The notes: generated by a model not told the origin, from the sequence alone. DNA of 64,000 nt from a virus (IMGVR_UViG_3300026549_000030:96001-160000); one strand, 5' to 3'; shown: positions 8,403 to 60,950, counted from the stretch's first letter. A program made the numbers and translations.

Positions 8403-8783
8403 CTAGGCGATTCTTTCTATATTTAATACGCTATCAGGATCAACAAGCACGCAATTCCTTCCCGGACTTACACCTTCAGTGGAAGCAGTTATCTTAAGAA
8501 TACATGGTCCATAACTTTTAATAAGTCGTTGCGCCTCCTCTGGAGTTGACACGGCAATAATCTTTCCAGGATATATTGAACTAAGTTTATTGCCGGCAAG
8601 AACACTATAATCGCCGTATTTGTTTGCCTTTAAATAATAATCAACATAAGTGTCAGGAACCCATTTATATACATCTGTGCTTCCCTGTTCGCCTTCAACG
8701 TATTCTTTTATTACCTTCTTTACGCTTTCAGCAATAATCTGTCTGAGGGCGTTTTCATTTAGTTTAATTGTATTATTTTTCAT
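8403..8783 (-). CDS. Hypothetical protein with shared N-terminal leader (putative capsid cargo)
   Basis: Starts MKNNTIKLNENALRQIIAESVKKVIKE. Confidence 0.8.
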   Translation of the reverse strand: MKNNTIKLNENALRQIIAESVKKVIKEYVEGEQGSTDVYKWVPDTYVDYYLKANKYGDYSVLAGNKLSSIYPGKIIAVSTPEEAQRLIKSYGPCILKITASTEGVSPGRNCVLVDPDSVLNIERIA

Positions 8784-9161
8784 ATTCTTATTTGTTTAAT
8801 TTGTTTGTTATAAGGATGTGAAGATGGCGGTTTAACTCAAGTCGTCAAATGTTAAATCGCCGTCCGAAAGTCCTCGTGGGCTGTTAATTCTCATAACAGT
8901 TTCTTCCAATGAAATTATTGATTCCCATAAATAGTTCCACTCTTTTCCTGCTAATTTCATGAACTCATCGAGTTGTTCTTTCGGGATGCTATAATAAAAA
9001 TCCTCTAATATCCCTACTACTTTATCAAGAGTATTTTGAAGTTCTTTGAATGACGGAGCAGAAGCCCAAGCATACTCGTTCAACACTTTCTTCACGCTCT
9101 CAGCGACAATTTGCCTGAGGGTGCTTTCGTTCAGTTTAATTGTATTATTTTTCATATTCTT
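8761..9161. repeat. 29-bp identical direct repeat (8761-8789 and 9133-9161) within a ~75-bp imperfect repeat encoding the leader peptide
   Basis: AGTTTAATTGTATTATTTTTCATATTCTT occurs twice, covering the start codon and translation initiation region. Confidence 0.85.
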
Positions 9162-9218
9162 GTTCGTTATTGCATTAGAAAGTTGACTTTCATTTATCGT
9201 CAATACATTTTTATTCAT
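8832..9218 (-). CDS. Hypothetical protein with doubled N-terminal leader (putative capsid cargo)
   Basis: MNKNVLTINESQL...MKNNTIKLNESTLRQIVAESVKKVLNE; alternative start at 9155. Confidence 0.8.
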   Translation of the reverse strand: MNKNVLTINESQLSNAITNKNMKNNTIKLNESTLRQIVAESVKKVLNEYAWASAPSFKELQNTLDKVVGILEDFYYSIPKEQLDEFMKLAGKEWNYLWESIISLEETVMRINSPRGLSDGDLTFDDLS

Positions 9219-9264
9219 TGTAATTCAGAAATTGTACTATTATAAATAGTTTGCAATATAAAAA

Positions 9265-9288
9265 AAACGAGGGAAAAATCCCTCGTTT
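9265..9288 (-). terminator. Rho-independent terminator after tail sheath
   Basis: AAACGAGGGA-AAAA-TCCCTCGTTT, with a T run on the minus strand. Confidence 0.75.
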
Positions 9289-9306
9289 CTTCGTTTATGA
9301 GTTTCT

Positions 9307-15309: not shown

Positions 15310-17316
15310 ATGATTGTAAGCGCGAAAAAGAGAAATGAGGCGTTTGAAATATTAAGAGATTACGAAGGAGAAAACCCATATATATTAACGCTCAAGAAAT
15401 CCGTCTACGTTGAAGGAAACGCGGACGCGATTGGCAATTTCCAAGCGGAGTATATTCTAAGGAATTACAATATACAGCCAAAGAAGATAAACAGAATCGT
15501 AAAGTTGGCTGATTGGTACGCAGAGGATAAGATGAAAGAGTGGGAAATAGATTTCCTACCAAGCAAGATAAAAATTATCACCCTTCTCGGTGAAACGGAC
15601 AGCACGTATAACTGCTACATACAATACAGGCAGTCGGTGCCTCCACAGCCTTGTTTCTTGAAAAAGAACGGACTTCTCACAAATTTTCTCGTTGAAGATT
15701 ATAATAAGGTTAAAGTAGATTTCGACAGGTATAGTCGCTTGTCGGATTTCAAGCGTATTTTGTTTGATCACCAAAAAGACGCTGTTAAATTCTTACTGTC
15801 AAGAAAGAAGTGTATCCTCGCAGACGATATGGGGCTTGGCAAGTCAACAACCGTATCAGTCGCAGCAATAGAGGGAAATTTCGATTCGGTTCTTATTATT
15901 TGTCCGGCGTCTATTAAAGAAATTTGGAAAAGGGAATTATCATTCTACATTCCTGAGAAAGATATAACGATAATCGAAGGATTTTCAGATAAGAAGAAAG
16001 GTGAACTTGAAGAGTTTCTCGGATATGCCGTCGGAAAATCAAATATGACGAGAGAACAACTGTTGGAAGAGGCTAAGGAACGAGGGCAATGGAAATTCAA
16101 CAGGTTCATTATCGTGAATTACGATATTGTAGATAATTTCTTCAAGTCAAAGAGGACATATACCAAGCAGCAATTCGACGAGTTAATCTCGAACAATCCA
16201 ATGCTGAAGTATATCAATAATAGAAAATCTCTTATTATTCTCGACGAGGCACATAATTTATCTAATTCAAAATCAATACGTTATAAGACAATTAAGGGAC
16301 TTATAAGTAAGGGTAATCCCGATTCTATATATGCTGTAACGGGTACGCCGATTACCAATGACCCGGCTAATCTGTTCTGCGTTCTCAATTTACTCGGAGA
16401 TAACATTACCTCCGATTGGGATTACTATATGCGACGCTACTGTTCAGCCGAGGAATTCTGTAAGGATAAGGAAGAAAGGAACAGGTGGACTAGCGAATTC
16501 CTTAGAAAAAAGAAAAAGGGAACTTGGTACGATTTAACCAAGGAAGAAAAGAAAGAACTTAACGAGTATCTTCACGAACACTGCAAATTTATATTGGTTC
16601 CGAAGGGTCCGTCAAATTTGGAAGAGTTACGTGATAGAATTTCTCACATATATCTTCGTAGGACAAAAGACAGCCTAACACTTCCAGAAAAGACAATCCA
16701 CGAAATTTATTATGATTTGACACCCGAGCAGGAGAGTGAGTATAATAAATTATGGGAAGAGTACGAGGAGGAAAAGAGGACATTGGATCCTGAGAAAGAA
16801 CTTAACAAGGACTTACTCGAGGGAGCAATCTATCGCCAATATCTATCAAATGAAATGATACCAAATACAGTATCATTGACGGATAGGGCGGTTGCCAAGG
16901 GAGAAAAGGTTGTTATTGCCTGTTGTTACGACGAGGAACTTTACAAATTACAGGAACATTATGGAGACAAGTGTGTTATCTACAATGGAAAAATGTCACT
17001 TCGTCAGAAGGAAGACGCAATTTCTCAATTTATGGGAAATCCCGATGTGATGATTTTCATTGGGAATATTAAGGCGGCAGGAGTTGGAATTACTCTTACG
17101 GCTTCAAGGACGCTTATCTTCAATGACTTCGACTATGTTCCCGGCAACAACCAACAAATGTCAGACAGGGTGCATAGAATCAGCCAAACGCGCCCCGTCC
17201 ACATTATATACCAAATTTTCCGCAATACTCAATATCAGAAAATGTGGGAAATCAATGTCAGGAAGCAAGTTACAATAGATACAGTTATTAAAAAAGAGGA
17301 CGAAAAAAATGGCTAA
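15310..17316 (+). CDS. SNF2-family (HARP/SMARCAL1-like) helicase
   Basis: LADDMGLGKS, LDEAH, TGTPITN, LRRTK, GVGITLTAS, DRVHRISQ. Confidence 0.92.
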   Translation: MIVSAKKRNEAFEILRDYEGENPYILTLKKSVYVEGNADAIGNFQAEYILRNYNIQPKKINRIVKLADWYAEDKMKEWEIDFLPSKIKIITLLGETDSTYNCYIQYRQSVPPQPCFLKKNGLLTNFLVEDYNKVKVDFDRYSRLSDFKRILFDHQKDAVKFLLSRKKCILADDMGLGKSTTVSVAAIEGNFDSVLIICPASIKEIWKRELSFYIPEKDITIIEGFSDKKKGELEEFLGYAVGKSNMTREQLLEEAKERGQWKFNRFIIVNYDIVDNFFKSKRTYTKQQFDELISNNPMLKYINNRKSLIILDEAHNLSNSKSIRYKTIKGLISKGNPDSIYAVTGTPITNDPANLFCVLNLLGDNITSDWDYYMRRYCSAEEFCKDKEERNRWTSEFLRKKKKGTWYDLTKEEKKELNEYLHEHCKFILVPKGPSNLEELRDRISHIYLRRTKDSLTLPEKTIHEIYYDLTPEQESEYNKLWEEYEEEKRTLDPEKELNKDLLEGAIYRQYLSNEMIPNTVSLTDRAVAKGEKVVIACCYDEELYKLQEHYGDKCVIYNGKMSLRQKEDAISQFMGNPDVMIFIGNIKAAGVGITLTASRTLIFNDFDYVPGNNQQMSDRVHRISQTRPVHIIYQIFRNTQYQKMWEINVRKQVTIDTVIKKEDEKNG

Positions 17317-18224: not shown

Positions 18225-19232
18225 TTAATATCCCTTAGTATCTACATTAGAGTAAAGAATTAATTTACCATCCATATTGAGGTGAACAAGCTGCTTCATA
18301 CCTGCAGGTAAATCGTCGTCGAACACCATAAGGGCTTTCTCCAATCCTCTTACATTCTGAATCTTACTAACGTCTGCAATAACAACGTGAAGTCCACCTG
18401 AAGGTGTTTCGTATTCAGTCTCAATTGGAACTCCATACTGTTTAAGAATGTTTTTTGTCTCATTCCATACATTCACTGCGCCGAGAGCGATAAGTTCTTG
18501 TTCCTGATTTGGATACTTCGGGAGGAATATCTGAGAACCTCTTGATTCAATTGTAACAATGCAATTATTTAATTTTGGATAATTTACATCGTCAACATAA
18601 TAAACTTCCTTGCCGTTCTTATCAGTAACTTTCTTTAAGTGCAGTTTAGAAGTTTTTGTCAATGGAAGATAATATGCATTCTTCTTTGTATCAATATCAA
18701 GGAAGAAACGAAGTCTGTCAGGCCATTTCTGTGCATCGTATGCCTTTGCCTGTCCTGCCATATGTTCGAATCCGTATTTCTGATCCCAAGGATTTAATTT
18801 ACTTCCATACTTCTGGCTAAGATTTGCGAGGTGGCTATTGATTGCGCTTTCAGAACGTGGATTGCAAGTTATATACGCCCTCGCATTGTTGGCGTCGCAA
18901 TAAGAAACGATTTGCTGCTTCAGAGAAACAAGTTCCTGTTTACTATGAACCTTGAAGGCTGTTCCATTTGCAAAGTTTCCGAACTGCCCTCCGTGATGAT
19001 ATTCAAATGAATTTCTTGACTGTTGCCTCCAATTCTGGGCGCCAGATTTATCCTTGTTATCCTTCCAACGTTTAACTATCTGAACGAAGAAGAATTGGTC
19101 CGGGTCAGTAAGGTTGATTAAATCGCCAACAAGGTCAAAGTTATCAACGACGGCTTTCGCTTCCGTAAGTACCGCTCCCTCGCTTAACAGCCTCTTATAT
19201 TGTGACTCAGTTATGATAATGCTTTTTGCCAT
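18225..19232 (-). CDS. AEP/Prim-Pol-like protein with N-terminal leader
   Basis: FFLDIDTK (DxD) and YETPSGGLHVV (T/S-x-x-G-x-H) match AEP motifs; leader IIITESQYKRLLSE. Confidence 0.55.
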   Translation of the reverse strand: MAKSIIITESQYKRLLSEGAVLTEAKAVVDNFDLVGDLINLTDPDQFFFVQIVKRWKDNKDKSGAQNWRQQSRNSFEYHHGGQFGNFANGTAFKVHSKQELVSLKQQIVSYCDANNARAYITCNPRSESAINSHLANLSQKYGSKLNPWDQKYGFEHMAGQAKAYDAQKWPDRLRFFLDIDTKKNAYYLPLTKTSKLHLKKVTDKNGKEVYYVDDVNYPKLNNCIVTIESRGSQIFLPKYPNQEQELIALGAVNVWNETKNILKQYGVPIETEYETPSGGLHVVIADVSKIQNVRGLEKALMVFDDDLPAGMKQLVHLNMDGKLILYSNVDTKGY

Positions 19233-19347
19233 AAAAAATTTTTACTCATTATAAATACATTTCAATTCATAAAATTTACGTATGTTTGTTATGCAAAATG
19301 CCGATGACTATTGTTTTAGTCTACAAGCGAAAGGAAAAAAGTTAAAC

Positions 19348-28600: not shown

Positions 28601-28620
28601 TCTATAAATATATTTATAGA
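28601..28620. promoter_or_regulatory. Perfect 20-bp palindrome forming back-to-back TATTTAT late promoters
   Basis: TCTATAAATATATTTATAGA between divergent genes. Confidence 0.7.
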
Positions 28621-28638: not shown

Positions 28639-29268
28639 ATGAGAAAAGTTACCTTCACGGAAGAACAAATGCGTAGAATACTTGGAGAAGCCGCCGACGA
28701 CTTTATCCTAAATCTTGGCGATTCAGGAGAAATTCCCGGCAATGCTTATGGCACCGAAGTATTCACGAACAATATCGATCCTGATGCAAACGACGACGTT
28801 ACAACTGCTGATAACTTCTCAAGAAAGAGGAGTAGGACTAACAGGCTGTTCGCACGCACAAGGACATATGAAAGTGTTAATGAATCTACTTTCGACGACA
28901 ATAGAGGATTAAATTTCGGAAAAAACGAGAAGGATGCTATCGTTTCACAAAGCGCAAGCGATAACGCAGGTAAAATGCTGAAAAACATATCAAAGGATAT
29001 CAATAATGGCGGAACCAGAAACAACACGAACCAAGTGAGGCTCAGCAGGCTGCAGGCACAGAAGAAATCAGACCCTGTTGCCTATGCAAAGAATGGCGGT
29101 GACAACACAGTCAAGGCGTTGAAGAATGCAACAAGAAAGGTGAGCTCGACAAATACCGCAGTAAAAACGGCTTTCGACAACTCTCCAATCAACCAAACTC
29201 CCGACGCAAATAAGGGAGCAGGAAAGGGCCACCACGAAAATAATGAAGCTTCAATATATTATTATTGA
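28639..29268 (+). CDS. Hypothetical protein with N-terminal leader
   Basis: MRKVTFTEEQMRRILGE; internal VNES. Confidence 0.75.
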   Translation: MRKVTFTEEQMRRILGEAADDFILNLGDSGEIPGNAYGTEVFTNNIDPDANDDVTTADNFSRKRSRTNRLFARTRTYESVNESTFDDNRGLNFGKNEKDAIVSQSASDNAGKMLKNISKDINNGGTRNNTNQVRLSRLQAQKKSDPVAYAKNGGDNTVKALKNATRKVSSTNTAVKTAFDNSPINQTPDANKGAGKGHHENNEASIYYY

Positions 29269-29720: not shown

Positions 29721-30587
29721 ATGGACTACGCTCAGAGGGTTATAAGAGAATTACTCGAGGAAGAGGTTCAGCAGAACGTACTTATCAACGCAATTAAAAA
29801 GCGTCACGAGGTTTCATTCGTGTACGATAGCGGAGACGGAGATAAGCGCGGAAAGGCTGAACGTATCACCGTGCAGCCCGTTTGTTATGGATTGACAAGC
29901 GCGGGAAATCCTTGCTTCAGAGCATATCAGGTGCTCGGAAGTTCGGAAAGCGGTGAGAAGGGCGAACGCCCCGTTCCCGGGTGGAGGCTCTTCCTACTGA
30001 GCAAGGTTGTTGATAATTCTTTGAAAGACTCGGGAAAGGTATTCAACAAGCCACCCATGTACAACGAGAACGGAGACAAAACAATGTACGAGGTACTTGT
30101 GAAGGCGGACTTTGCAGGCTCGTCTAAGAGATACGAGCGAGGTGGACTCAAGAGATACAACGATGAACGCCACGCGAAAAACGTTGAAAAGAATCCGTTC
30201 TACGACTTTGAGAAGCAACTTAATAAGAAAAAGATTGCACCTGATTATGTTCTTAGAAATATCGACAGGACACAAGTCAGCAAAGCCGAAAGAGACAGGC
30301 AATGGGATTTGGCTCAAAACGCTGCGAAGGGAAACAACCCCTCAATCGCTGATATGGCGAAACAGAAGGATTTCGGAAACGATCAACAGCAGCAGACGAG
30401 CGGACCTCAAAGAAAGGGGCAAAGGAATGAAGTTCCGAAGCAATCAAACAAGCCCATTGATTATTCAAAGGCACAGCAGAACGGTCCAAGGTACAAAGGC
30501 GAAAATTTAAGAACAGATAACGAAGATAACAGTCAAGAAAATGAATATAGGCAACGCACTGGCGAAGGCACAGAGACTAATGCTTGA
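29721..30587 (+). CDS. WYL-domain protein with low-complexity C-terminus
   Basis: AIKKRHEVSFVY...ERITVQPVCYG...RAYQ...GWRLFLLSKV. Confidence 0.65.
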   Translation: MDYAQRVIRELLEEEVQQNVLINAIKKRHEVSFVYDSGDGDKRGKAERITVQPVCYGLTSAGNPCFRAYQVLGSSESGEKGERPVPGWRLFLLSKVVDNSLKDSGKVFNKPPMYNENGDKTMYEVLVKADFAGSSKRYERGGLKRYNDERHAKNVEKNPFYDFEKQLNKKKIAPDYVLRNIDRTQVSKAERDRQWDLAQNAAKGNNPSIADMAKQKDFGNDQQQQTSGPQRKGQRNEVPKQSNKPIDYSKAQQNGPRYKGENLRTDNEDNSQENEYRQRTGEGTETNA

Positions 30588-44581: not shown

Positions 44582-45205
44582 CTATTCCCAAAAATTTGCA
44601 TCAATTATTCCGCCGCCGGCATTTTTAACTTCCTCGCCGTGTACGTTCATTGTTGGCGTAATCCAATGGTGATATAAACCATTGAAGTTTTCTACGCTGG
44701 GAATGGAATCCGCCCCATCGGCGTGCTTGAATTCATGCGTCCTAACAGGGTATCCCTTTTCATCAAATTTCCATCCATAGGGCATTACAAGTTCGCCATT
44801 AAGAATATCATTCTTGTCCTTCAAGATTGCATTACGATCCATTAATTCACGTGTAGCCGCCCTGAAAATTGCGGTTCCTCGTTTGTTCGTTTTAAGAAGA
44901 TTCTTTAATTCCTCGTAGCTAAGATCACGAACGTCCGAATAAGCCCCATTTGAAGATGTTACAACTTCATCTCCGCCTTCTTCGTCGTCAACTACAGCGG
45001 CGTCATTTGCATCTGCAGCTGCATTTTTTGCGTCATCGGCAGCTTCTGCGTCATCTTCTTTCTTTTTATCTTTATTGAACGCAGCCTTTGCCTTTTTATC
45101 GTTCTTTGCGGCGTTAACAATATCATCCACCCAATCCTCTTTAAGAACCTGAGAAATCGCCTCAGCTATGCATTCGTTCAATTCTTTTTCAGTTACCTTT
45201 GCCAT
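44582..45205 (-). CDS. Hypothetical protein with N-terminal leader
   Basis: MAKVTEKELNECIAEAISQVLKE. Confidence 0.75.
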   Translation of the reverse strand: MAKVTEKELNECIAEAISQVLKEDWVDDIVNAAKNDKKAKAAFNKDKKKEDDAEAADDAKNAAADANDAAVVDDEEGGDEVVTSSNGAYSDVRDLSYEELKNLLKTNKRGTAIFRAATRELMDRNAILKDKNDILNGELVMPYGWKFDEKGYPVRTHEFKHADGADSIPSVENFNGLYHHWITPTMNVHGEEVKNAGGGIIDANFWE

Positions 45206-45210: not shown

Positions 45211-45849
45211 TTATATGTTTTTAGTTGCGTTATATTGTGGGGCCATATCCATTTTATACGTCGATTCGTTTGATTTGTCGTTCAACACATATACTTTCGC
45301 AGGAGAGTTCTTCAATGTTCCTCCGTATTTGACATTGTTAGAAACAAGTATGTCTACTTTGTGCTGTCCTGCGAAGCGCTTATTCATTGTGTCCTGTATT
45401 TGATAAACGCCGTCCTGAATTCCGTTGTATGTTCCTTCAATCTTAACTATATCTCCATACTTTAAGCCAAATTCACTCATCATCGTCCTTTCCATTGCGA
45501 TAATCTTATGTGCTTCTGGATTCTTTAAGTCTAATTTAAACATTGATGCGGTATGCCTGACGTCTGCGTTACATTGAGCGGGGACTGCATTATAAACAGT
45601 TACTATAACGTCATCGGCTATCATTTTCCACTCCTCCTGAGGAGCGGCGTATACAACCTCTGCTTCCATTTTCTGTTTCTGCGCGTCGTCGACCGTTTCC
45701 AAACCTGAAATGATTGATAAAGCCATTGCTACAGATATAGCTCCGACAGCAACTTTCTGAAGTAACGACTTGAAACTCTCGTTAAGAATTTGCTGTTCCA
45801 TAAGCGCGTTAAACTGCGCTTCCGTGAGGTATATCTTTTTCCCTTCCAT
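45211..45849 (-). CDS. 3D-domain (MltA-like) peptidoglycan hydrolase with leader and hydrophobic segment
   Basis: TVYNAVPAQC...TAS...IIAM...YGDIVKIEG...IQDTMNKRF...VDIL. Confidence 0.75.
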   Translation of the reverse strand: MEGKKIYLTEAQFNALMEQQILNESFKSLLQKVAVGAISVAMALSIISGLETVDDAQKQKMEAEVVYAAPQEEWKMIADDVIVTVYNAVPAQCNADVRHTASMFKLDLKNPEAHKIIAMERTMMSEFGLKYGDIVKIEGTYNGIQDGVYQIQDTMNKRFAGQHKVDILVSNNVKYGGTLKNSPAKVYVLNDKSNESTYKMDMAPQYNATKNI

Positions 45850-46754: not shown

Positions 46755-46798
46755 AATAACTGTCTAATTTATTTATAAATACTTCTTTGGCGACGCTT

Positions 46799-48793
46799 TT
46801 ACAGGAGCTCTTTCTCATTCTGCTTATGCGTTTCTTCAAGTTTTTCAAGATCCTTGATAGCCATATTCAATTCTTCATTGATAAGGAAGTTTTTGTCGAG
46901 TAGCGCGACGCGCTCATTACTTATCTCTTCTGGGCTCTTACGCAGTCTCCTGATATAATTGTCTATATGCTCATAACCTGACTTCGCTTCCGCAAGTGGT
47001 GCTGAACCTTCTCCTCCTCCTTCTCCTCCGAGTGGAGTTGAAGCTTCCTCCCCACCGATTGAGCCCATATCATCAGCGCCCGGCTCGCCTAAGTCGCCAA
47101 GGTCGTCACCGAAGCCGCCGCCAATAGCAGGCGCACCGCCTCCGCCGCCTAAGCCGCCCATATCTTCCTGTCCAGGAATCTGCGGACTGTACTCTGCTCC
47201 GAGTTCCCCATAGATATTATCAACGTTGTCAAAGATATGCGTTCTCTTAATAATTTCAGGAGTGCGTTGAAGTTCAATAGCAACCGCTGCTTCAAGTCTC
47301 ATTTCGTCAAGTGTTTCAGCAATTTCAGAATCGCTCTTGCCCATAATGTCCCTCTGTACTTGGTGCCAAGACATAAGCGGAATTCCACCACCCTGTTCAG
47401 CGAGCGCCGCAGTAGCTGCATTGATTCTCTTAACCAAATTATCGAGTTCCATCATCTCGATTTGATTTGATGGATTATTTAGCGATAATGTGAAGTTGGT
47501 TAAATCGTCGTCATATCCCAAGATATGAAGGTGTATGATAGCAACCTTGTTGAGTTCCATAAGGACAGCCTGTTGAAGGCTGTTCACAGTACGGCTGAAC
47601 CTGATATCAAGGATTGAAAGGTTCTGCCCCTTACCCTGAGGCTCTTGGAAATTCAAATAAGACTTAGGAACACCCAATCCGCAAAGAACCTTATTCTCCA
47701 TGAAGTTGATATCATCCATAGATGTAATGTTCTGCGCTGAATTAAGGTTGTCGATAGACGTTGGATCCTGTCCAGGCCTTACAGGAATAACATAGTCAGC
47801 ACTAACATCAAGGAAATTCTTCCTCAAGTCAATCTGTCCCGTCTGAGGGTCAATAATAGGAGCCCTCTTAATGTTATTCATAAATTCCTGAAGGAATGCA
47901 GGAACGTCATTATCGTCAATTAAGCCGACATTTACCTTGAAAATCCTTCTTTCAACACTTCTTTCGAGACGATAGAGAAGCATTCCATCTTCCATCATAG
48001 AAAGCATTCTCCAATGCCTACGTGAGTGGTTCAACCAAGAAACGCCATATGGAAGATAAAGAGAATCATTAATAAGACGGAAGTGCGCAACCTGCCAACT
48101 CTTAAACGGAATCTGCTGATTGTGTCCTTCCCAAACAAATTTAACATCGTCAGGTTTAATGTTCTGTGTTACGCCGGCGGAAGCGTATGTTCCGGAATAT
48201 GCGTTAAGCATACCATTTTCCAAACGTGTAACCTCATGAACTGGAAGTTCTCTCCACCCAGTTACTCCGTTCTTTGCGTCAATGTTAAGGAACATAAATT
48301 CGTTACCGTATTTCGCGGTAGCACGCATAATAGTCTTACTCCAAAGATTGAAGTCAAGGCGGTTAATGAACAAATCTTCGAGTATCGCCTTAATTCTTGG
48401 GGATTTTGAATAGATATTCAGGATTTTTCCCTTTGAATTGATTGTGGTTGCCTCGTCAGAAACGATTGTCAATGCGCGTCCGATTTCAGGCCATGCGTCC
48501 ATTAAGTCCGCATCACGGTACATTACCTTGACTTGGCTCGCGCCAGCCATTTGTTCCATTGAGGTTTCGTAGCCAATCTTCTGCCATTGATAAGCAAGGA
48601 GGCGCTGCTGTTTCAATTCTTTCAGCTTAGCGTCCCTTTCAGCCTTGTCGTCGGTAGAGAAAATAACCTCAGAGCTTGGTGCGATATTGTATATTGCCGA
48701 TTTTGGTTGCTGAGCCGCCGTAGCAGGATATCCACGCGTTACTCCAATCATTACATCGGATAGTGTCTGTAGTCTGGTTCTTCTTTCAGCCAT
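46799..48793 (-). CDS. Portal protein (gp20-like)
   Basis: MMEDGMLLYRLERSVERRIFKVNVG, DYVIPVR, LGVPKSYL, DIRFSR. Confidence 0.93.
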   Translation of the reverse strand: MAERRTRLQTLSDVMIGVTRGYPATAAQQPKSAIYNIAPSSEVIFSTDDKAERDAKLKELKQQRLLAYQWQKIGYETSMEQMAGASQVKVMYRDADLMDAWPEIGRALTIVSDEATTINSKGKILNIYSKSPRIKAILEDLFINRLDFNLWSKTIMRATAKYGNEFMFLNIDAKNGVTGWRELPVHEVTRLENGMLNAYSGTYASAGVTQNIKPDDVKFVWEGHNQQIPFKSWQVAHFRLINDSLYLPYGVSWLNHSRRHWRMLSMMEDGMLLYRLERSVERRIFKVNVGLIDDNDVPAFLQEFMNNIKRAPIIDPQTGQIDLRKNFLDVSADYVIPVRPGQDPTSIDNLNSAQNITSMDDINFMENKVLCGLGVPKSYLNFQEPQGKGQNLSILDIRFSRTVNSLQQAVLMELNKVAIIHLHILGYDDDLTNFTLSLNNPSNQIEMMELDNLVKRINAATAALAEQGGGIPLMSWHQVQRDIMGKSDSEIAETLDEMRLEAAVAIELQRTPEIIKRTHIFDNVDNIYGELGAEYSPQIPGQEDMGGLGGGGGAPAIGGGFGDDLGDLGEPGADDMGSIGGEEASTPLGGEGGGEGSAPLAEAKSGYEHIDNYIRRLRKSPEEISNERVALLDKNFLINEELNMAIKDLEKLEETHKQNEKELL

Positions 48794-48880
48794 AATCTTA
48801 CTTTTGCCTATATTGGCTTATCTTATAAATACTTTCATTCCACATTAAAATTAATGATTCTCCCGCTATAATCAAGAAAA

Positions 48881-50050: not shown

Positions 50051-52276
50051 TTACATATTACTTTTAGCGTCTTGTATTACGTCCTCAATCTGATCAAATC
50101 CAATCCAATCGGATTCGTTGTTTATATCAATTGCGAACACCTTGTGAACCTTACTGAAATCTTCAGGATACCAAATTGCAGGAACATTCTGTGAAGGAAG
50201 AAGGACAATTCCATATAATGTCACACCGTGGCACTTAAATTGGAATATTCCATTCGTTCCGATTGAAGGCTCATTGTCAAAATTAACAGGAGAAACTATA
50301 TTGTTGTTTCTCTTATTGATATCAATAATGTTGTATCCACCGCCCTTTGTTCTAACAGTAGTTACATTTACGCTGCTGTTTCCAATATTGCAATGAACAA
50401 TCTCATCACTTACGCTTGCGAATGCGTGCCTGAACTTCTGAACAGGATCGTTGTTTCTAATAGAACGTTCCTTCGCAGATTGGAAATCGAATAAATCGCT
50501 ATGCCAAGTTTTTCCGCAGTCAGTTGTGTATTGATAAGGGATAACTTGGTCGAAATTCCAACATACCATTGACAATCCGTCGTTTCCTCCGAAATATATT
50601 GCGCCCCTTACGTTATATTTTGAGAACAGATTCTGATATTTTGCTGAATTTCCATATCTACTATCGAACATAACGTGGAGCATTCCCGTCGTTCTGTTGT
50701 ACGAACCCACATTCATAGTATCTTGACAATTCTCAATGCGTTTTGCCATCCACCCCGACATTTCAGCCCATACGCTATCAGCAACGTCCTTAGGAAATAG
50801 GAAATAAACCTGGTCCTTCAATTGATATTTTCCCTTGTAAACTTTTTTAGCCCATTCCTCGTTGAAGATAAGGAATCTATTGAATCCGCCGTAGACAATC
50901 ATTTTAACGCCGCCTGCGTGAGTTTCCTTGTCATACTTGTAATATTGAACAGAATTAGGGTTAAGAACCGCGTAAACGCCCTCTCCGTACCAAGAGCCGT
51001 CGTTACTTCCAGCGAACTGCCTTAGCTGTCCATTTGAGAATATAGACTTGAAGTTGCTTGGAGCCGTAGCCCTATAAACATAACAAGTTCTCTTAGATAC
51101 AAATTCTTTCTCGTCTTTATCCGTAATCTCCTCTTCAAGATTTTTTCTAAATATCTCTCCAAGACTTTCAACGACTGGCTGATATCTATAATTTACCTTC
51201 TCGCGGTAATCAGCCAATATCTCGTCCATATTTTCCTTATTGAAAGGAAGCCATCCTTCTTCGTCATTAAGGTTAGGACGATGAAGATTTCTTAAATCGT
51301 TTTCAGGATACCAAATGGCAACAGTCTGATATGAAGGAAGAAAAACGGTTGCATACCAAGTCATTCCTCCGTATTTAAAGCTGAATACACCGTCCCTAAT
51401 TCCGGGAGAAGTGGGCTCCGATCCAAACCACACGTCGCTAATCACTTCAGGCTTAGGAGAAACAATGTTTTCAGTATCAACCTTTGCTATATTGTATCCT
51501 TCCCTTCTGTTTCTGATGACGCAATATAATTCATTATTTGTCTGAACCTTAACTGCGCTTGACTTATCAAAATCATCGAAAAACCCCTTTAATTGAAAAT
51601 CCCAATCGCAGCCCCTTTGATAGCGTTCCCTTGCATTGATATCAAAAACGTGTCTGAATTTATTTTTAACAGCGTCTTCGCTATCATATCTTGAAACATG
51701 CTCAGCAACATCCCAAAGTATTACAGAAGAGAAATCAAATGGAAGAACCGTAGCCACATAATCGTCATACATTATTCCGCGAATACCCCATTTTCTGCAA
51801 AGGCGAACGGTGTCGTCATATTGGTTCATTCTTACCCCGTTTGATTTTATAGCCGCAGCGTCATAAGGATCCTTTACAATAGTATCAATCTGCTCATTAG
51901 GTGTTAAATTCCTTCCGTAATATTTGATAACCTGTCGTTTAATTGAAGGATAATCGTCAGCATCAAACATTATATAGTTCTTAAATCCGCCAAGAACCTT
52001 TCCGCGAAGAATAACGTCGCCATACCCCTGTGCAGCACGACGAATTCCACCACTAAGCTCGAGAGATGCATAAACGCCCTCACCGCGCATTGTTCCTCCG
52101 TCCCCCGCAAGCTGATGTTGGAATCCGTGTTCTATATAGCTTTCAAGGTGCTGAGAACGGATAGCCTTGTATATACTTGGGCACGATGCAATATCCGAGT
52201 CAGAAGGAAGATTCCTCGCCTCGGATAGTACAGCATTTCTAAATGCCTCAGAGATAATATTTTTCAATTTACCCAT
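50051..52276 (-). CDS. Internally duplicated protein with two ADP-ribosyltransferase-like domains and an N-terminal leader
   Basis: YKAI...HGF...MRGEGVYAS and YRAT...NGQ...WYGEGVYAV; each unit ends ...LPS...AIWYPE. Confidence 0.55.
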   Translation of the reverse strand: MGKLKNIISEAFRNAVLSEARNLPSDSDIASCPSIYKAIRSQHLESYIEHGFQHQLAGDGGTMRGEGVYASLELSGGIRRAAQGYGDVILRGKVLGGFKNYIMFDADDYPSIKRQVIKYYGRNLTPNEQIDTIVKDPYDAAAIKSNGVRMNQYDDTVRLCRKWGIRGIMYDDYVATVLPFDFSSVILWDVAEHVSRYDSEDAVKNKFRHVFDINARERYQRGCDWDFQLKGFFDDFDKSSAVKVQTNNELYCVIRNRREGYNIAKVDTENIVSPKPEVISDVWFGSEPTSPGIRDGVFSFKYGGMTWYATVFLPSYQTVAIWYPENDLRNLHRPNLNDEEGWLPFNKENMDEILADYREKVNYRYQPVVESLGEIFRKNLEEEITDKDEKEFVSKRTCYVYRATAPSNFKSIFSNGQLRQFAGSNDGSWYGEGVYAVLNPNSVQYYKYDKETHAGGVKMIVYGGFNRFLIFNEEWAKKVYKGKYQLKDQVYFLFPKDVADSVWAEMSGWMAKRIENCQDTMNVGSYNRTTGMLHVMFDSRYGNSAKYQNLFSKYNVRGAIYFGGNDGLSMVCWNFDQVIPYQYTTDCGKTWHSDLFDFQSAKERSIRNNDPVQKFRHAFASVSDEIVHCNIGNSSVNVTTVRTKGGGYNIIDINKRNNNIVSPVNFDNEPSIGTNGIFQFKCHGVTLYGIVLLPSQNVPAIWYPEDFSKVHKVFAIDINNESDWIGFDQIEDVIQDAKSNM

Positions 52277-54071
52277 TTAAGTTTTCCATTTTATCGAAGA
52301 GTCTGAAGAAACCTTCCTGAACCATTTCAGGCGTTGTTTCGTCTGCAGTCTCCTCCATAACTTCCTCATCAAGTTCAAGTCCTGCGTAATGCGCAAACTC
52401 CTTGAAAGAAATAGGCTTAGGCATTCCATCTCCTAATCCTTCCTCAACAACAGCCTTAACCGTGCCGTTGTTGGCGCCAGAGCCATTGGCTCTTGATTTA
52501 GCCCTACTGTGTGACAATTTCAATAACTCGCTGTTAATTTCGCCAACAAGAGCAATGAAGTCTTGGTAGCATTTCGTTATATTTTCCTTGAATGTTTGAT
52601 CCTTACGCGCATTTCCGAGAGCAGCATTAAGGTTTGCACTATACTTCTGAACTTGGAATCCATAAACGGCTGCGAGTCCAATAGCGAATGCGTTTCCAAC
52701 CGCCTCTTTAATCGCAGGAACAACAATGTTTCTACCGGGGCAAACGTAATTCTTTGCGTAGAAATCCGCATAGTGCGCAATATCGTCACCGAGTGAACCG
52801 CCAACACCCCTTGGGCTTGTTCCGCATTTCTGTGTGCATATAGCTGAGAGAATGTTGATAATATCGGTAATTTCCTCATCACCCCTTCTTACAATCTGCT
52901 GTGGCTTATACTGAACACCAGCGTCAACAGCAGCCTTCTTGTCGTTTGTAACAGCAAGCGCGTTAGGAATACCCTGAATATTATCAGCAAGGTTAACCTC
53001 GGTATTGAACACATCCGGCATTCCGGGCCTTAACTGAGTATTGGAAATATCGTAAACTTTCTGCTTTGTAAAGTCAGGGCTCTGAGGGTTAAGAATGTTT
53101 GCAAGGAACATAACAGCCATAATCTCCGCTTGGCTCAACTGTCCCGCCTTCTTCTCAGCACGGAACACGTCATAAGGCTGACGTCCTGAGTTTGTGTTAT
53201 CGACATATCCAAGCTGAGCAGCAGCCTGATTCCATGCATTTATATCCTTGATTTTGTTGTTTGCAGTCTTGATTTCGAGGGCAAAGAGAGTCTTGTCAAC
53301 AACGTCACGGTTAAATACATTGTTCCAAGTCCACTCGTTCGTTACGAATGTGGCAGTAGGAAGATATGACTTAACCATAAGTTGATTCACAGGGCTAATT
53401 CTCCAACCACATGAATTTCCTTGCTTGATAATCTTCTGACGATTCGCGATAGATTGTGAGAAATTCACGGTTACGCCACCGACGAAGCCAAGTTTCTTTG
53501 TATAATTAGGATCCGAAAGAAGCGAAAGAATCTTATCAACGTTCATTGCCTGACGTTCCTCTGCTTTCTTTAAATCCTCATCACTCGGTGCCTCGTCAAT
53601 CCTTCCAATAATACTATTTGGAAGCGATGCAAGAGCATTCTGCTTATAATATCCGTTAGCAACGCCGTTCAATGCAGAAATATCAGAGACAATGTTCGGA
53701 AGGATTTTCTTAAATTCGTCCTCTTGTCCGGGAAGAATCGTCAAATCAATCGGAGTTGGCTCCTTAGGACCAAGCTTTTCAGTAGTATTTGGCTTTGCTG
53801 AGAGAATGCTTCCGTATTTGTTATTCCAATCCTGAATCAACTTGTTTATATGCTGATTATGAATCCACTGAAGACGCACTACAAGATTTTCATTTCCATT
53901 ATCGTCCTTTACATAAGAAGCACTTCTCGCTGTAGGAGCGACTGCATTGGGGTGATCCTTTACCGCAGTGGTTGTTCCTTTTCCACCTGCAGGTGCGCCA
54001 AATCTTTGCAATTCGTAAAGCGTTTCATTCACCATTTTCTCAATATCTGAAATGCCAAAATTTTCATTCAT
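52269..54071 (-). CDS. Hypothetical protein with ArdC-N-like motif and N-terminal leader
   Basis: ISPVNQLMVKSYLPTATFVTNEWTWNNVFNRDV. Confidence 0.5.
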   Translation of the reverse strand: MNENFGISDIEKMVNETLYELQRFGAPAGGKGTTTAVKDHPNAVAPTARSASYVKDDNGNENLVVRLQWIHNQHINKLIQDWNNKYGSILSAKPNTTEKLGPKEPTPIDLTILPGQEDEFKKILPNIVSDISALNGVANGYYKQNALASLPNSIIGRIDEAPSDEDLKKAEERQAMNVDKILSLLSDPNYTKKLGFVGGVTVNFSQSIANRQKIIKQGNSCGWRISPVNQLMVKSYLPTATFVTNEWTWNNVFNRDVVDKTLFALEIKTANNKIKDINAWNQAAAQLGYVDNTNSGRQPYDVFRAEKKAGQLSQAEIMAVMFLANILNPQSPDFTKQKVYDISNTQLRPGMPDVFNTEVNLADNIQGIPNALAVTNDKKAAVDAGVQYKPQQIVRRGDEEITDIINILSAICTQKCGTSPRGVGGSLGDDIAHYADFYAKNYVCPGRNIVVPAIKEAVGNAFAIGLAAVYGFQVQKYSANLNAALGNARKDQTFKENITKCYQDFIALVGEINSELLKLSHSRAKSRANGSGANNGTVKAVVEEGLGDGMPKPISFKEFAHYAGLELDEEVMEETADETTPEMVQEGFFRLFDKMENLNG

Positions 54072-54229
54072 AACATTATACAATTTACTATCAATAAATA
54101 CATTTTCCTAATAAAAAGTAAGATAATTGATAGATAAACTAAAGCTATATAGAAGTCATAAATTATTATAAAAACAAGAAAAATAACATTAAAACTTCGG
54201 CATTTTGATATTTATAATAAAAAGACTAT

Positions 54230-55189
54230 ATGGGAAAATTAAAATTTACCACTGAACAATTTATTGAAGAAGCCAAAAAAATTCATGGTGACAAATTTAT
54301 TTACGACAAGGCTGAGTATCTTGGGGGAGATAAAAAAGTGTGCATAATATGCCCTGAACATGGAGAATTTTGGCAATCCGCAAAAACACATTTGCATGGA
54401 ACCGGCTGCCCATATTGCTACGGGCACTATAAACCAACGACAGAAGGCTTCATTGAGAAATTAAAAAAAATCCACGGGGATAAATATGACTATTCGAAAG
54501 TAGAGTATAAAGGCTCGTTTTCTAAAGTTCGCCTAATTTGCCCTGAGCATGGAGAATTTTGGAAAACGCCCAACTCATTATTACAGGGGCAAGGATGCAG
54601 AAAGTGCGGAACGGCTTCCGCGCAAAATAAAAACAGGATGCAGCAAGAAGAATTCATTGAAAGGGCAAAAGATATCCATCAAAACAAATATGATTATTCG
54701 AAAGTGAACTATATTAATACTGACACAAAAGTTTGCATAATATGTCCGGAGCACGGAGAATTTTGGCAGACTCCACATCATCATTTAAATGGGGTCGGAT
54801 GCCCAAAGTGCGGAAGAAATGACATTACTGAGAAGAAATTATATGAGAATGTTGCAAAAATTTTCCCAGACGCCATACGCCAATATAGACCACATTTTCT
54901 TTATAATAACGGAAAGCCATTATCGTTAGATATTTTTATACCGTCTATAAATACTGCCATTGAATATCAGGGGCGACAACATTTTGTTCCTGTGTCAAGA
55001 TATGGCGGAGACAAAGAACTTTCCAACACAAAAAGAAGAGATGCCAAAAAATTTAATTTATGCAACGAAAACAATGTGACGTTATTGTATGCAAGCTTTG
55101 AAAAAGAAGCCCCAAATACGTATTTTAAGACTATTTATAATAATGAAACAGATTTAATTAACGAATTAAAAAGGCTAAAAAATGATTGA
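54230..55189 (+). CDS. Free-standing homing-type endonuclease (Zn-ribbon repeats + PD-(D/E)XK)
   Basis: Three ICPEHGEFW..GC repeats; LDIFIPSINTAIEYQGRQHF. Confidence 0.85.
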   Translation: MGKLKFTTEQFIEEAKKIHGDKFIYDKAEYLGGDKKVCIICPEHGEFWQSAKTHLHGTGCPYCYGHYKPTTEGFIEKLKKIHGDKYDYSKVEYKGSFSKVRLICPEHGEFWKTPNSLLQGQGCRKCGTASAQNKNRMQQEEFIERAKDIHQNKYDYSKVNYINTDTKVCIICPEHGEFWQTPHHHLNGVGCPKCGRNDITEKKLYENVAKIFPDAIRQYRPHFLYNNGKPLSLDIFIPSINTAIEYQGRQHFVPVSRYGGDKELSNTKRRDAKKFNLCNENNVTLLYASFEKEAPNTYFKTIYNNETDLINELKRLKND

Positions 55190-57301: not shown

Positions 57302-57305
57302 CGCT

Positions 57306-57572: not shown

Positions 57573-57582
57573 GGCTCTTTTT
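57551..57582. terminator. Bidirectional terminator after major capsid gene
   Basis: AAAAAGAGCCTCA-AATC-TGAGGCTCTTTTT. Confidence 0.8.
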
Positions 57583-57601
57583 AAGTATTGCTTTCCGAAT
57601 A

Positions 57602-59470
57602 TTAACGAAGCTCGTTGATATCCCAAGTCTGGAGTCCGTTTGCAACGATAGCGCCGTAGTAGCGGTTGTTAACCATCTTCTTAGCGTAACGAGTGATGAT
57701 ACCCTTAACAGGTGCGAAGTTAGCGCTGTTGTAGATAGTAGGAGTTAACTGCATAGGCACATAAGGTGCATAGATGTAACCTGTGTCGAGGAGGCTATCG
57801 CCCTTGTGTCCGATGATAGCGGACTCTGCAGGTGAATAAGGATCCACGAACACGTTGTAGCGGCCCTGGAGTGAACCAACCTTCTCAATACCCATTGAGT
57901 ATGTCACAGCCTCAGCGTTAGCGTCGGTTACGTGGAAGTACTCAAGGTCGTTGAGCATAGCGTTGATTTCGGTAGAAACAACCACGAAGTTTGCACCACC
58001 ACGAAGAGTTGACTTGTGAATCTGTGCAGAAATCTGATTGATCTTTGTCATGAAGGTCTGGTTCCAGTCCTTCTGAGTGTAGTTCGTTGAGAAACCACCC
58101 TGACGTCTCCAACCGTTGTAGTCCCACTTAAGCTGCCAAGGAGAAGCCTTGCGGAGGTCGCGGAGGATCTCACGGTCGATTTCAGCAGCAATCTGCTCTG
58201 AGAGGATAGCTGTAAGCTCAGCCTCAGCGTCGATGTTGTGGAATGCGGCAACGTCCTGAGCGAGTTCAGGAGACCATGTAGCACGGAGCTTGCGCTCGTC
58301 AACAGACACGGTAACATCTGAAAGCTTGAAGGAAACCTCACCGATTTCGGTTTCGAGCTCGAGAGAGTCATACTGTGCCCAAGCAACCATGAACTTGCTG
58401 TTCACGTCGTCAACGCTGATAGCGTCGCTTGCTACACCGATATAACCATCGAGAGTTGTTCCAGGAACCTTCACAGGTTTTGCAAGGTCGAGTTCAAGAT
58501 AAATCTTGCCTTCGGCGTCGCAAGGGTTGGAGTACTCCACTAAGCCCTTACCATAGCGCTGTGTAACGCAACGGAAGTGAACGGGCTCGCCCTTCTTGAA
58601 GCAAGCAAACTGGGTTTCGCCAGAAGCTGCAGCTTCGCCGATGTCTTCCTTAGCAACTACTCTAAGTGAAGCGAGGAATGACTCAGTGTCCATTTCGTTT
58701 CCGTCAGGACCTGTGAGCTTTGAAGCACGGAATGAAGAGAAACCGCTAACCTCAACGATAATGTTGCGGACGGAATCGTCAATACCGCATACAGGAAGAG
58801 TGTCAACATCCTTATAGTCGCCGTTGAAAGCAATGCGAACAGGCTTTACAGCACCAACGCGGATATGAACCTTACCCTTTGAATGATCGAAAAGACCATC
58901 ATTGTAGAAGAGGTCGTAAAGGCTCTTCTTGAAGAAGTGCACAACCTCAGGAGTATTACCAGACTCGTCGATATTTACAACCTCGTCAGGGAGATAGTAA
59001 CGCTGGCGAACTGCGCCGTCATAGTTACCTTCCTCGTCACGGTGGTTGCGCTCAACGCGGTCGTAACCCATAAGTCCGTAGTGAGAAGCAGTAGCTCCGT
59101 CAAGATTCTCCTTGTCGCCTTCGAACCTGCGCTCTGAAGTAACAGGAAGAATGAAGAAAAGTTTGCCGATAGGCATGTTCATAGCCTGAACGGACACGAT
59201 GTCGTTAGCAAGAAGACGTGAGAAAACACGACGTACTAACGGGAACACAACAGTCTCGAATGAACCGCTGTTGGATGCATCAGAAGCTTCCTTAAGAAGG
59301 ATGTGAGCTTCGTTCTCGAAAAGGGTAGCCATATTCTCTTTGAGATATCCGGTAAGACCCTTTGTGAAGCCGATGTTGTCCCAACGCTCCTGGATCATTT
59401 TGCGAGCCTCTTCATGTTTGCCAGTGGAAATGTTACCAACCTGGCCGCCTTGTAAGAAGTTTGATACCAT
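57602..59470 (-). CDS. Major capsid protein (gp23-like)
   Basis: FPLVRRVF, VQAMNMPIG, RKLRATWSPELAQD, AEAELTAILSEQIAAEIDREI, YAPYVP; probable maturation site LLKE|A. Confidence 0.97.
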   Translation of the reverse strand: MVSNFLQGGQVGNISTGKHEEARKMIQERWDNIGFTKGLTGYLKENMATLFENEAHILLKEASDASNSGSFETVVFPLVRRVFSRLLANDIVSVQAMNMPIGKLFFILPVTSERRFEGDKENLDGATASHYGLMGYDRVERNHRDEEGNYDGAVRQRYYLPDEVVNIDESGNTPEVVHFFKKSLYDLFYNDGLFDHSKGKVHIRVGAVKPVRIAFNGDYKDVDTLPVCGIDDSVRNIIVEVSGFSSFRASKLTGPDGNEMDTESFLASLRVVAKEDIGEAAASGETQFACFKKGEPVHFRCVTQRYGKGLVEYSNPCDAEGKIYLELDLAKPVKVPGTTLDGYIGVASDAISVDDVNSKFMVAWAQYDSLELETEIGEVSFKLSDVTVSVDERKLRATWSPELAQDVAAFHNIDAEAELTAILSEQIAAEIDREILRDLRKASPWQLKWDYNGWRRQGGFSTNYTQKDWNQTFMTKINQISAQIHKSTLRGGANFVVVSTEINAMLNDLEYFHVTDANAEAVTYSMGIEKVGSLQGRYNVFVDPYSPAESAIIGHKGDSLLDTGYIYAPYVPMQLTPTIYNSANFAPVKGIITRYAKKMVNNRYYGAIVANGLQTWDINELR

Positions 59471-59504
59471 AATTAGTTTCTTTTTTTATAACTTTGTTAT
59501 TTTT

Positions 59505-60950
59505 TTACTTTTTAAAGAGATTGTCCATTCTGTTCATAAGGTCAATCGAAGGATCGTTGACGTTCTGATAAATGGTTGTCTCATTTAAATTTTTTGATTC
59601 AGCAACGAATTGCTTCTCAATTGCGGGTTTTGAATTTACGGATTCCTTAAGTTCTGACTTAATTGTCTCGTAAAGGTTCTTGCCCTCTGTGAGTGTCTTA
59701 ACAGCGTTGAAGCGCTCGCAGATTCTCTTCTTCTCGTCCTTGGTTGTTGTCTCATTCACAAGAATATCGACAAGCTTGCCCATATTGACGTTGAGAACAG
59801 CAGCCTCATACAGGCTCTTCTTAATCTTATTAATGCACTCAACATATTGTTTATTTTCGGCCTGAATAGCCTTTGCCTTTGCGACAATCTTAGTTACAGA
59901 TTCGCGGAGAGCCTTGTACTCACCATCCTCAGATGACTGATGCTGGTTCTGTGCACCACGATTAATGTGGTTTGTGCTCTTCTTGTTAGCGTGCTTAGTG
60001 TTAAGTCCGCTTCCGTCCTCTTCAAGATTTGCATCAAGATTTGGATTAGCAGGCTCGTTTCCACAAGCTGCGCCACACTCGTTGACTGACTTCTCGAATG
60101 GCTTGCTGTCGCCCTTTCCTGCCCATGGTTTCTCAGAGCCCTTAGGTGCGCCTTCATCCCAATCGTTAGTAGTCTTTGAATCGGCAGGCTCGTTCATATT
60201 GAACTTCTTGTCGAATACGTCCTTCTGATAAGAGTCAGTGTAACCGAGGTTTTCCTCGTTAAGCTCTTCCTCATTGTCATCATTAAGGTCGATTTCGATA
60301 TCGCCGTCCTCATCTCCGCCAAGATTAATGTCAATGTCGTCGTCTCCGGCTTCGCCCTCAATGTCAACATCTTCACCACCGTCTACATCTGCGGTATCAT
60401 CGCTTCCGGCTTCGCCACCCAGTGCATCAGGATCAAGTTCAATCACGAATTCGGCGCCAGTCTCGTCATCCTTCACAGAATAAGTTCCGTCATCTTCCTT
60501 CTTTACGAAGATTTGGTCGTCATCCCCGAGTTTGTTGTAGACTTTGAGAATTTCATCTCCATCCACGCCCGTGAAATCATAATCATTGTCACCAACCTTG
60601 TACTGTTCAAAATCTGACCATTCATCGTCATCGGCATTGCCCTCATCAGAGCCTTCCTCGCCTTCCTGTGAGAAATCCTCTTCGCCTGCTCCCTCTTCGG
60701 GTGCCTCGGCGTCGTTATCCTCACCGCCTTCATTGTCAGTTACTGCAGGAACATCCTCGGTATTGACATCCTCTACGCTATAACCGTCTTCCTGTTCCTC
60801 TTCCTCGCTATGGTCTTCCTCTTCCATCACCAAATTGGCGATAGTTTCGTTTACGATAGCACGAAGAGACTTCTCGGTGCCTTCCTGTAATGCCTTTGTA
60901 ATCTTCTCGGCATCACGGATAGTTTTTTCAGCCGTATTATTTTTTTTCAT
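59505..60950 (-). CDS. Prohead scaffold/core protein
   Basis: Very acidic with a coiled-coil C-terminus and many L-x-E sites; immediately upstream of the major capsid gene. Confidence 0.8.
   Translation of the reverse strand: MKKNNTAEKTIRDAEKITKALQEGTEKSLRAIVNETIANLVMEEEDHSEEEEQEDGYSVEDVNTEDVPAVTDNEGGEDNDAEAPEEGAGEEDFSQEGEEGSDEGNADDDEWSDFEQYKVGDNDYDFTGVDGDEILKVYNKLGDDDQIFVKKEDDGTYSVKDDETGAEFVIELDPDALGGEAGSDDTADVDGGEDVDIEGEAGDDDIDINLGGDEDGDIEIDLNDDNEEELNEENLGYTDSYQKDVFDKKFNMNEPADSKTTNDWDEGAPKGSEKPWAGKGDSKPFEKSVNECGAACGNEPANPNLDANLEEDGSGLNTKHANKKSTNHINRGAQNQHQSSEDGEYKALRESVTKIVAKAKAIQAENKQYVECINKIKKSLYEAAVLNVNMGKLVDILVNETTTKDEKKRICERFNAVKTLTEGKNLYETIKSELKESVNSKPAIEKQFVAESKNLNETTIYQNVNDPSIDLMNRMDNLFKK

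Follow-up and report, generated by a model that had tools for sequence, protein, structure and literature searches.

What is the function of a short helical segment that recurs at the start of otherwise unrelated open reading frames (ORFs) in a large phage genome? The question is raised by a 64,000-nucleotide (nt) stretch of viral DNA (IMGVR_UViG_3300026549_000030:96001-160000; hereafter the window), which corresponds to bases 96001-160000 of a single virus contig of 241,996 bp with 40.5% G+C. A preliminary description of the window had pointed to an amphipathic leader ending in (L/I)-x-E on unrelated late proteins and had read it as a tag that loads cargo into the capsid. The recognisable proteins of the window, as matched in Pfam and PHROG, are a Gp23-family capsid protein, a Peptidase_S77 protease, a T4-type portal protein, the large terminase and a tail sheath of 1016 amino acids (aa). 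We propose, with a probability of about 0.6, that the leader is a capsid-targeting propeptide, that is, a functional analogue of the capsid-targeting sequence (CTS) of phage T4 which is unrelated to it in sequence, longer, and not a member of the same family by homology. It is called an analogue and not a homologue because the enzyme family, the logic of the cleavage site and the design of one tag on unrelated proteins are the same, but the tag itself is unrelated in sequence, longer and more widely used.

The leader has the core h-x-h-[TN]-E-x-Q-L-x-x-[IM]-[IV]-x-E-S (h, hydrophobic), to which long forms add [VI]-K-K-V-L-x-E; short forms stop at the first h-x-E or at one close to it, and the length of the leader ranges from 17 to 27 residues. 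When scored with a leader profile, members reached 12.5-24 bits, whereas six-frame ORFs from the entire genome, once reversed or shuffled, reached no more than 7.2 bits. As the members were themselves included in the profile, this test was circular, and it was therefore repeated leaving out each sequence in turn. In this leave-one-out scoring, 17 of 21 candidates held 10-34 bits, against a background of 7-9 bits for ordinary N-termini. A scan of the genome revealed approximately 18 strong and 6 weak copies, the majority of them outside the window. The ORFs previously listed as sharing the leader were separated by these scores: those starting at 8783, 9155, 19232, 28639, 45205 and 45849 and the scaffold carry it (11.5-33 bits), whereas those at 29721, 52276 and 54071 do not (5.2 bits, 6.6 bits and no score, respectively). 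The leader consensus is basic, with a net charge of +5. Its hydrophobic moment was not significantly above that of shuffles (p 0.12), and amphipathicity is thus not claimed as a measured property. A literature search for the motif string gave no relevant match, and an ESM Atlas look-up gave a score of ~0.8, which is a lead only.

The bodies behind the leader are mutually unrelated, as had been stated earlier; an all-against-all BLASTP comparison of 25 carriers with the leader masked gave no match at E <= 0.01. The limits of the leader are visible in the DNA of two neighbouring genes, 8403-8783 and 8832-9218, which have ~85 nt in common at ~88% identity and none beyond. The shared segment runs from 15 nt before the ATG of one gene to exactly the last leader codon. 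The gene at 8832..9218 (-) also holds a non-terminal full copy (residues 22-48) behind a partial copy, and this internal copy retains the start region of the other gene (AAGAAT-ATG) in frame. A homologue search with residues 1-40 of the 8403..8783 protein returned only the query itself. Homologues of the 18225..19232 protein have a short-form leader, a long-form leader, an unrelated N-domain or nothing before a conserved body that begins with V-D-N-F, and in 57 of 61 distinct N-extensions of this family an h-x-E lies 4-6 residues ahead of the body. These comparisons indicate that the leader is a separable module at both the DNA and the protein level.

Conservation within the leader was examined in 298 copies from the best 149 metagenomic proteins. 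It extends to L(73%)-x-E(72%), and at the next position no residue exceeds 16%. Every synonymous codon is used at the conserved leader residues, and 58% of the residues common to copies differ in codon; because of this codon usage, the peptide, rather than a signal in the RNA or DNA, is judged to be the target of selection on the leader.

We further analyzed the head genes of the window. The protease aligns to T4 gp21 (PDB 5jbl, 1e-16), and His99, Ser163 and Asp188 lie within G-E-L-N-H-P, S-S-R-G-L-G and D-A-V blocks; judged by this alignment, the H/S/D catalytic triad of the S77 protease is intact. An S80 protease with a [SAG]-x-E motif was not encountered, the protease being S77 and the residue two positions before Glu being L/I/V/M. 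The N-terminus of the protease holds V-I-T-E↓I and L-I-E↓N (the arrow marks the candidate point of cleavage here and below), and its C-terminal tail holds I-E-E and I-K-E. These terminal sites recall T4 gp21, for which self-processing has been proposed at an L-I-E near the N-terminus (PMC9026906). In the capsid protein, the L-L-K-E↓A site named in the preliminary description was located at E61↓A62, and the site type [LM]-[LIM]-x-E↓[AST] is present there in 59 of 59 distinct relatives; the other candidate, E45, is not kept. Neither BLASTP nor phmmer revealed a gp24-like vertex paralogue.

The presumed scaffold contains a leader-like N-terminal helix (residues 21-43, nt 60822-60890) that ends in V-M-E↓E. 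It also has an extended acidic tract and, at the C-terminus, a conserved domain that is helical. That it carries the leader pattern is supported by a leave-one-out score of 11.5 bits and by its orthologues, which retain a helix ending in L-x-E ahead of the acidic tract. When hhalign was run with a leader profile free of the scaffold, the best match fell on scaffold columns 27-44 with a P of 0.007, but the reported probability was only 5%. A complex prediction from the scaffold and leader alignments scored 0.00, below the mark and with controls not run, and is informative neither way. The sheath, portal, terminase and capsid proteins do not score as leader members.

Most carriers lie in units of the type that contains the structural genes. 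A TATTTAT element 15-60 nt upstream heads the units of the sheath, portal, scaffold and protease genes, and from the genes that it precedes we infer a role as late promoter. Strong carriers are associated with such units statistically (14/18; odds ratio 10.4, p 1e-5), but not all of them, contrary to what had been described. The gene at 44582..45205 shares its late unit with the gene 45849-46754, whose TATTTAT is located at 46775-46781. The TAnnTTTG host-type promoter precedes none of the 18 strong carriers, compared to 43 of all 292 genes. Among the 90 genes in the early region at 202-242 kb there is no carrier (p 0.001); one carrier lies beside the DNA polymerase gene.

Most carrier bodies gave no Pfam or PHROG match; a Nudix domain is one exception and, as a weak case, a large 'polyvalent' InPase protein another. 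No function is recognisable in most carriers, for which the 'effectors for injection' of the preliminary description lack support, and one carrier appears replication-related. This is the 18225..19232 protein, in which a match to PHROG 14949 begins at residue 28. In its AlphaFold2 model, the body is a well-folded domain of ~300 aa with a predicted local distance difference test score (pLDDT) of >90, and the leader (pLDDT 65-71) is a helix outside the folded body. The protein has an invariant D-x-D (D179, D181) and S-G-G-L-H blocks reminiscent of primases. Foldseek with the body gave nothing at E <= 0.001, and VIA-align gave generic ferredoxin-like matches and, weakly, the primase RepB' (Z 6.8 over 134 residues). 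A homologue in a 254-kb contig is likewise the divergent neighbour of a family-B DNA polymerase. The protein may be a primase-polymerase-like enzyme with a head-targeting tag; the primase idea is a lead.

The carrier at 45211..45849 has, after its leader, a hydrophobic helix and then a double-psi beta-barrel (DPBB) domain. The DPBB is the fold of expansins and RlpA-type wall-binding proteins. The AlphaFold2 model (pLDDT 86) shows a long N-terminal helix, and the top DPBB matches were phage and tailocin baseplate chains. In this family of 41 homologues, leader residues E10 and Q12 never vary, and at least 90% retain T9 and E24, down to ~50% identity.

The distribution of the leader was examined in relatives and metagenomes. 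The capsid protein is 36-39% identical to those of the nearest cultured phages, Microcystis phage Mel-JY01 and Flavobacterium phage immuto, whereas at least 598 IMG/VR contigs, many of 200-410 kb, have capsid genes 50-76% identical. For this reason the phage is assigned, on capsid sequence, to a large clade of uncultured giant phages that are distantly T4-like. The clade appears to originate from rumen and gut samples, and its hosts are probably Bacteroidota, as suggested by the kind of promoter and by where the samples come from. Between 7 and 15 leader copies occur in each of five relatives with complete or near-complete genomes. In 80 relatives, the DNA up to 10 kb from the capsid gene holds 32 strong copies; a Met lies no more than 5 residues away from 30 of these. 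The leader profile found no copies in T4 (E <= 0.1), Flavobacterium phage immuto or Microcystis phage Mel-JY01; 12 weaker copies occur in an uncultured phage of 484 kb. When 1.84 billion representative proteins were searched with the profile, 479 clusters matched at E <= 0.001. A degenerate leader DNA pattern occurs in 9 viral contigs, of which 5, including the only complete contig, have an S77 protease; the other 4 leader-positive contigs have a completeness of 11-61%. This analysis establishes the leader as a module, where it begins and ends and how it is distributed, together with the presence of the protease and the conservation of the sites. The coordinates of the features in the window are listed in Table 1.

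Table 1. Leader carriers, head genes and ORFs with leader-like patterns in the window. The arrow marks the candidate or predicted point of cleavage.
Feature	Coordinates	Strand	Leader or site	Score (bits)	TATTTAT	Remarks
126-aa ORF	8403..8783	-	long-form leader, residues 1-27, nt 8703-8783, ends V-I-K-E↓Y	28 (leave-one-out)		no Pfam or PHROG match
128-aa ORF	8832..9218	-	partial leader, nt 9156-9218, then full copy, residues 22-48, nt 9075-9155, ends V-L-N-E↓Y	33	9242-9248	
335-aa protein	18225..19232	-	short-form leader, residues 1-24, nt 19161-19232, with L-L-S-E↓G and V-L-T-E↓A	18	19251-19257	
209-aa ORF	28639..29268	+	short-form leader, residues 1-17, nt 28639-28689, ends I-L-G-E↓A	11.6	28611-28617	no family match
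288-aa ORF	29721..30587	+		5.2	none of its own	not a leader member
207-aa highly charged low-complexity protein	44582..45205	-	leader, residues 1-23, nt 45137-45205, ends V-L-K-E↓D	18		third gene after portal gene
212-aa protein	45211..45849	-	leader, residues 1-24, nt 45778-45849, ends I-L-N-E↓S	17.8		second gene after portal gene
Portal protein	46799..48793	-			48825-48831	PHROG 213, 7e-54; heads gene run ending in carriers 45849 and 45205
741-aa head-module protein	50051..52276	-	N-terminal I-S-E↓A and L-S-E↓A	6.6 (background)		no family match; not a leader member
600-aa head-module protein	52269..54071	-	V-N-E↓T and L-Y-E↓L near N-terminus	none above 0.9	54094-54100	not a leader member
Major capsid protein, Gp23 family	57602..59470	-	propeptide, residues 1-61, nt 59288-59470, predicted cut L-L-K-E↓A			Pfam Gp23, 8e-71; T4 gp23 structures, 1e-25
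Presumed scaffold, 481 aa	59505..60950	-			60988-60994	synteny: gp22 position, between protease and capsid gene
Prohead protease, Peptidase_S77 (T4 gp21 family)	61063..61776	-			61804-61810	Pfam PF03420, 3.4e-24, profile positions 1-189 of 198; PHROG 207

A superficial likeness to the leader was also observed in a group of paralogous homing-type-endonuclease-like genes, located at 21903-22838 (+), 42688-44013 (+) and 54230-55189 (+) in the window and at 62401-63534, 72457-74121 and 18225-19235 in the genome. Their N-termini share K-x-x-G-D/N-K-Y/F-x-Y, a TATTTAT lies upstream of each, and one is located between two polymerase gene halves. They start with [LF]-T-x-E-[EQ]-[FV]-I and score only 1.2 bits.

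The leader had been described as N-terminal; this is mostly the case, but internal and C-terminal copies occur, and copies extend beyond the window. Exceptions in this genome number 3 internal copies and 1 C-terminal copy. Among copies that seemed internal, 2 are separate genes with their own TATTTAT 29-30 nt upstream, and 2 others are truly internal. At 165298-166176 (+) and 15434-16144 (-) of the genome, a short-form leader stands in mid-ORF after a coding-looking acidic domain, with no TATTTAT upstream; if their sites were cut, these ORFs would give two products each. A 176-aa ORF at 199965-200495 (-) has a long-form leader at its C-terminus that is stopped short (V-L-L-S-I-stop, not V-L-x-E) and adjoins an oppositely oriented gene with an N-terminal G-D-E-G-K-G, adenylosuccinate synthetase-like. 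This C-terminal leader may be what is left of a leader-cargo junction, or it may be a genuine tag at the C-terminus. A protein of 798 aa encoded at 177256-179652 (-) of the genome has an InPase domain (Pfam 2e-51) and, near the C-terminus, a weak leader-like segment (5.6 bits). Its gene is back to back with a leader-Nudix gene and a small leader gene (179671-180477 + and 180474-180764 +), and the body of the Nudix carrier matches Pfam NUDIX. These three genes may form a local cluster of candidate packaged enzymes.

Copies in tandem were found in metagenomic proteins of 200-500 aa (P0001, P0002, P0008, P0012, P0020 and others), which have 2-4 leaders spaced 80-150 residues apart and often preceded by N-M-K-K or N-E-S-K-K. 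In sequence, these proteins look like in-frame strings of leader-cargo units. The four top metagenomic carriers lie on contigs of only 1-5 kb, without gene context. A tblastn search of cultured phage genomes with a two-copy metagenomic carrier gave no match, which is uninformative for a short motif with low-complexity filtering on.

In the proposed mechanism, approximately 20 unrelated proteins would be made late in infection with a helix of 17-27 residues, mostly N-terminal and occasionally internal or C-terminal, the pattern of which matches the N-terminal helix of the scaffold. The helix would carry each protein into the scaffold core as the Gp23-type shell closes round it. The S77 protease would then cut after hydrophobic-x-Glu, at the site that ends the leader and, in long forms, at a second site inside it; the propeptide of the capsid has the same type of site. 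The cargo would be freed within the head and would, at least in part, exit together with the DNA. A tag that is self-contained in this way could be moved between genes by recombination. Core binding, cleavage, packaging and ejection of the carriers are steps that we infer, and the computational predictions of a T4-style system that were tested came out as expected: the protease triad, the shared h-x-E, the module, the association with presumably late units, the absence of the leader from the early region and from recognisable tail and packaging proteins, and a DPBB carrier by the portal gene.

Several observations weigh against a capsid-targeting propeptide. A simple N-terminal tag would not be expected to occur internally, at the C-terminus or, as in metagenomic proteins, 2-4 times over, although tandem copies could equally be read as polyprotein-like strings cut by the protease. 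The gene at 18225..19232 adjoins the DNA polymerase gene (19282-21849, +), which is not suggestive of head cargo, and the D-x-D and G-G-L-H blocks of this carrier are replication-like rather than effector-like. Four of the 18 strong carriers lie outside TATTTAT units; the element itself is called 'late' only from the structural genes after it, and its genome count of 107 is about that expected from composition. The scaffold matches no family and was assigned by position and composition, and its likeness to the leader is weak on both measures given above. The leader has no sequence similarity to the 10-residue tag of T4. Finally, no relative is in culture (capsid identity to isolates at most 39%).

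Some of these observations would fit a helix that late proteins use as an all-purpose module for interaction or oligomerisation, for example to bind a shared partner, membrane or DNA, with no relation to the capsid and no removal by the prohead protease. Internal, C-terminal and repeated copies would be natural for such a module, as would the basic consensus; one carrier is the conserved, primase-like neighbour of DNA polymerase and another is a Nudix enzyme, and the link of the leader to the capsid is indirect. We nevertheless consider this explanation unlikely, because it accounts neither for the stop in conservation right after h-x-E in every leader subtype nor for the identity of this site type to the invariant site of the capsid propeptide. 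The pattern on the presumed scaffold, the clustering of carriers after the portal gene and the way the leader tracks the S77 lineage are also left unexplained by it. A still less probable alternative accepts entry into the prohead core and denies delivery: the helix would remain uncleaved, or would be cleaved from proteins that are only degraded assembly or core factors, with nothing reaching the host. T4 offers a precedent in gp67, gp68 and the scaffold, which are cut up and leave the head (PMC5694885), and the carriers 44582-45205 and 45211-45849 sit after the portal gene, where gp67 and gp68 lie; many carriers are also small and without recognisable function. Enzyme bodies such as the Nudix, DPBB and ~300-aa domains (pLDDT >90 for the last) would however be atypical of disposable core fillers, and the number and turnover of carriers resemble the internal-protein loci of T4 and not fixed assembly factors.

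It is hardly credible that composition, or a 5' nucleic-acid signal of late genes such as A-rich translation-start codons or a recombination site, accounts for the resemblance, the peptide itself being functionless. The genome is AT-rich, many of its N-termini begin with M-K-K, and the 8403 and 8832 genes share leader DNA together with the start region. Against this stand the use of every synonymous codon at conserved residues, shuffles that never exceed ~7 bits, copies far from any start codon, and the retention of the pattern both across 479 protein clusters and in relatives whose capsids are 50-76% identical.

The proposal of a capsid-targeting propeptide can be extended, tentatively and with more doubt than confidence, to the large uncultured clade as a whole. 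The leader might serve there as a portable address label; recombination at the label would swap hundreds of cargo families, and some genes would be leader-cargo strings that the prohead protease cuts into separate packaged proteins. The delivery repertoire would then be far larger and more modular than the three internal proteins of T4. If the leader is indeed a capsid-targeting propeptide, a single profile search would list the proteins that an entire uncultured clade packages and possibly injects, a set that is otherwise unobtainable without cultures. Most carriers have no known function and turn over fast, as expected of tools against host defences, and a search for new counter-defence proteins could concentrate on their list. 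In the label, these phages would also offer a natural means of loading cargo, usable for chosen proteins, and the T4 solution of a tag and a protease site would have been either reinvented or diverged beyond recognition with its logic kept. If the proposal fails, a conserved 25-residue helix on approximately 20 late proteins per genome, and in 479 clusters, still needs explaining.

Known systems resemble the leader to different degrees. Encapsulin cargo-loading peptides and the incorporation of P22-like scaffold and ejection proteins likewise rely on a short peptide that directs cargo inside an HK97-fold shell, but there the peptide lies at the C-terminus, makes direct contact with the shell and is not cut off by a maturation protease. 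These systems have no relation to the leader in sequence or gene context. Polyvalent proteins of phages and conjugative elements, among them InPase carriers, are represented in this genome by the protein at 177256-179652, which adjoins two leader carriers; unlike the leader system, it is a single multi-domain protein and not a tag system, and its leader link is weak. Closer are the phiKZ-like giant phages (201phi2-1, phiKZ, SPN3US), in which many head proteins lose N-terminal propeptides after Glu, at several sites, and in which enzymes are packaged and ejected (PMC5694885, PMC9026906). Their protease is S80 with an [SAG]-x-E or A-x-E motif, whereas that of the present phage is S77 with hydrophobic-x-E, and their propeptides, unlike the leader, do not form one shared recognisable sequence family.

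The closest counterpart is the CTS/gp21 system of T4 (IPI/IPII/IPIII, Alt, gp23 and gp24), which has the same S77 protease family and the same Gp23 capsid family. The internal head proteins of T4 all join the scaffold core via a short N-terminal CTS that is later removed by gp21 (PMC5694885). These proteins are diverse and have only the CTS in common; cargo genes turn over and the tag stays (PMC3012670). No more than its first 10 residues are required, and Alt is trimmed of propeptides at its two ends (PMC9026906). An Asp in place of the Glu of the T4 site prevents processing and leaves targeting intact (PMC9026906). Several cut sites in one propeptide, and a propeptide at the C-terminus as in Alt, have been described (PMC9026906, PMC5694885). 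We located the T4 CTS, M-K-T-Y-Q-E-F-I-A-E, on ipII and ipIII in the T4 genome. Like the CTS, the leader is short, helical and N-terminal, it ends in hydrophobic-x-Glu, and the proteins that bear it are otherwise unrelated. The leader differs in being known from sequence, with its function a prediction, and in having a pattern common to the N-terminus of the scaffold itself and found also internally and in tandem leader-body arrays. It is longer, at 17-27 residues, and has approximately 20 carriers per genome compared to 3-4 in T4, spread over 200 kb instead of one or two loci.

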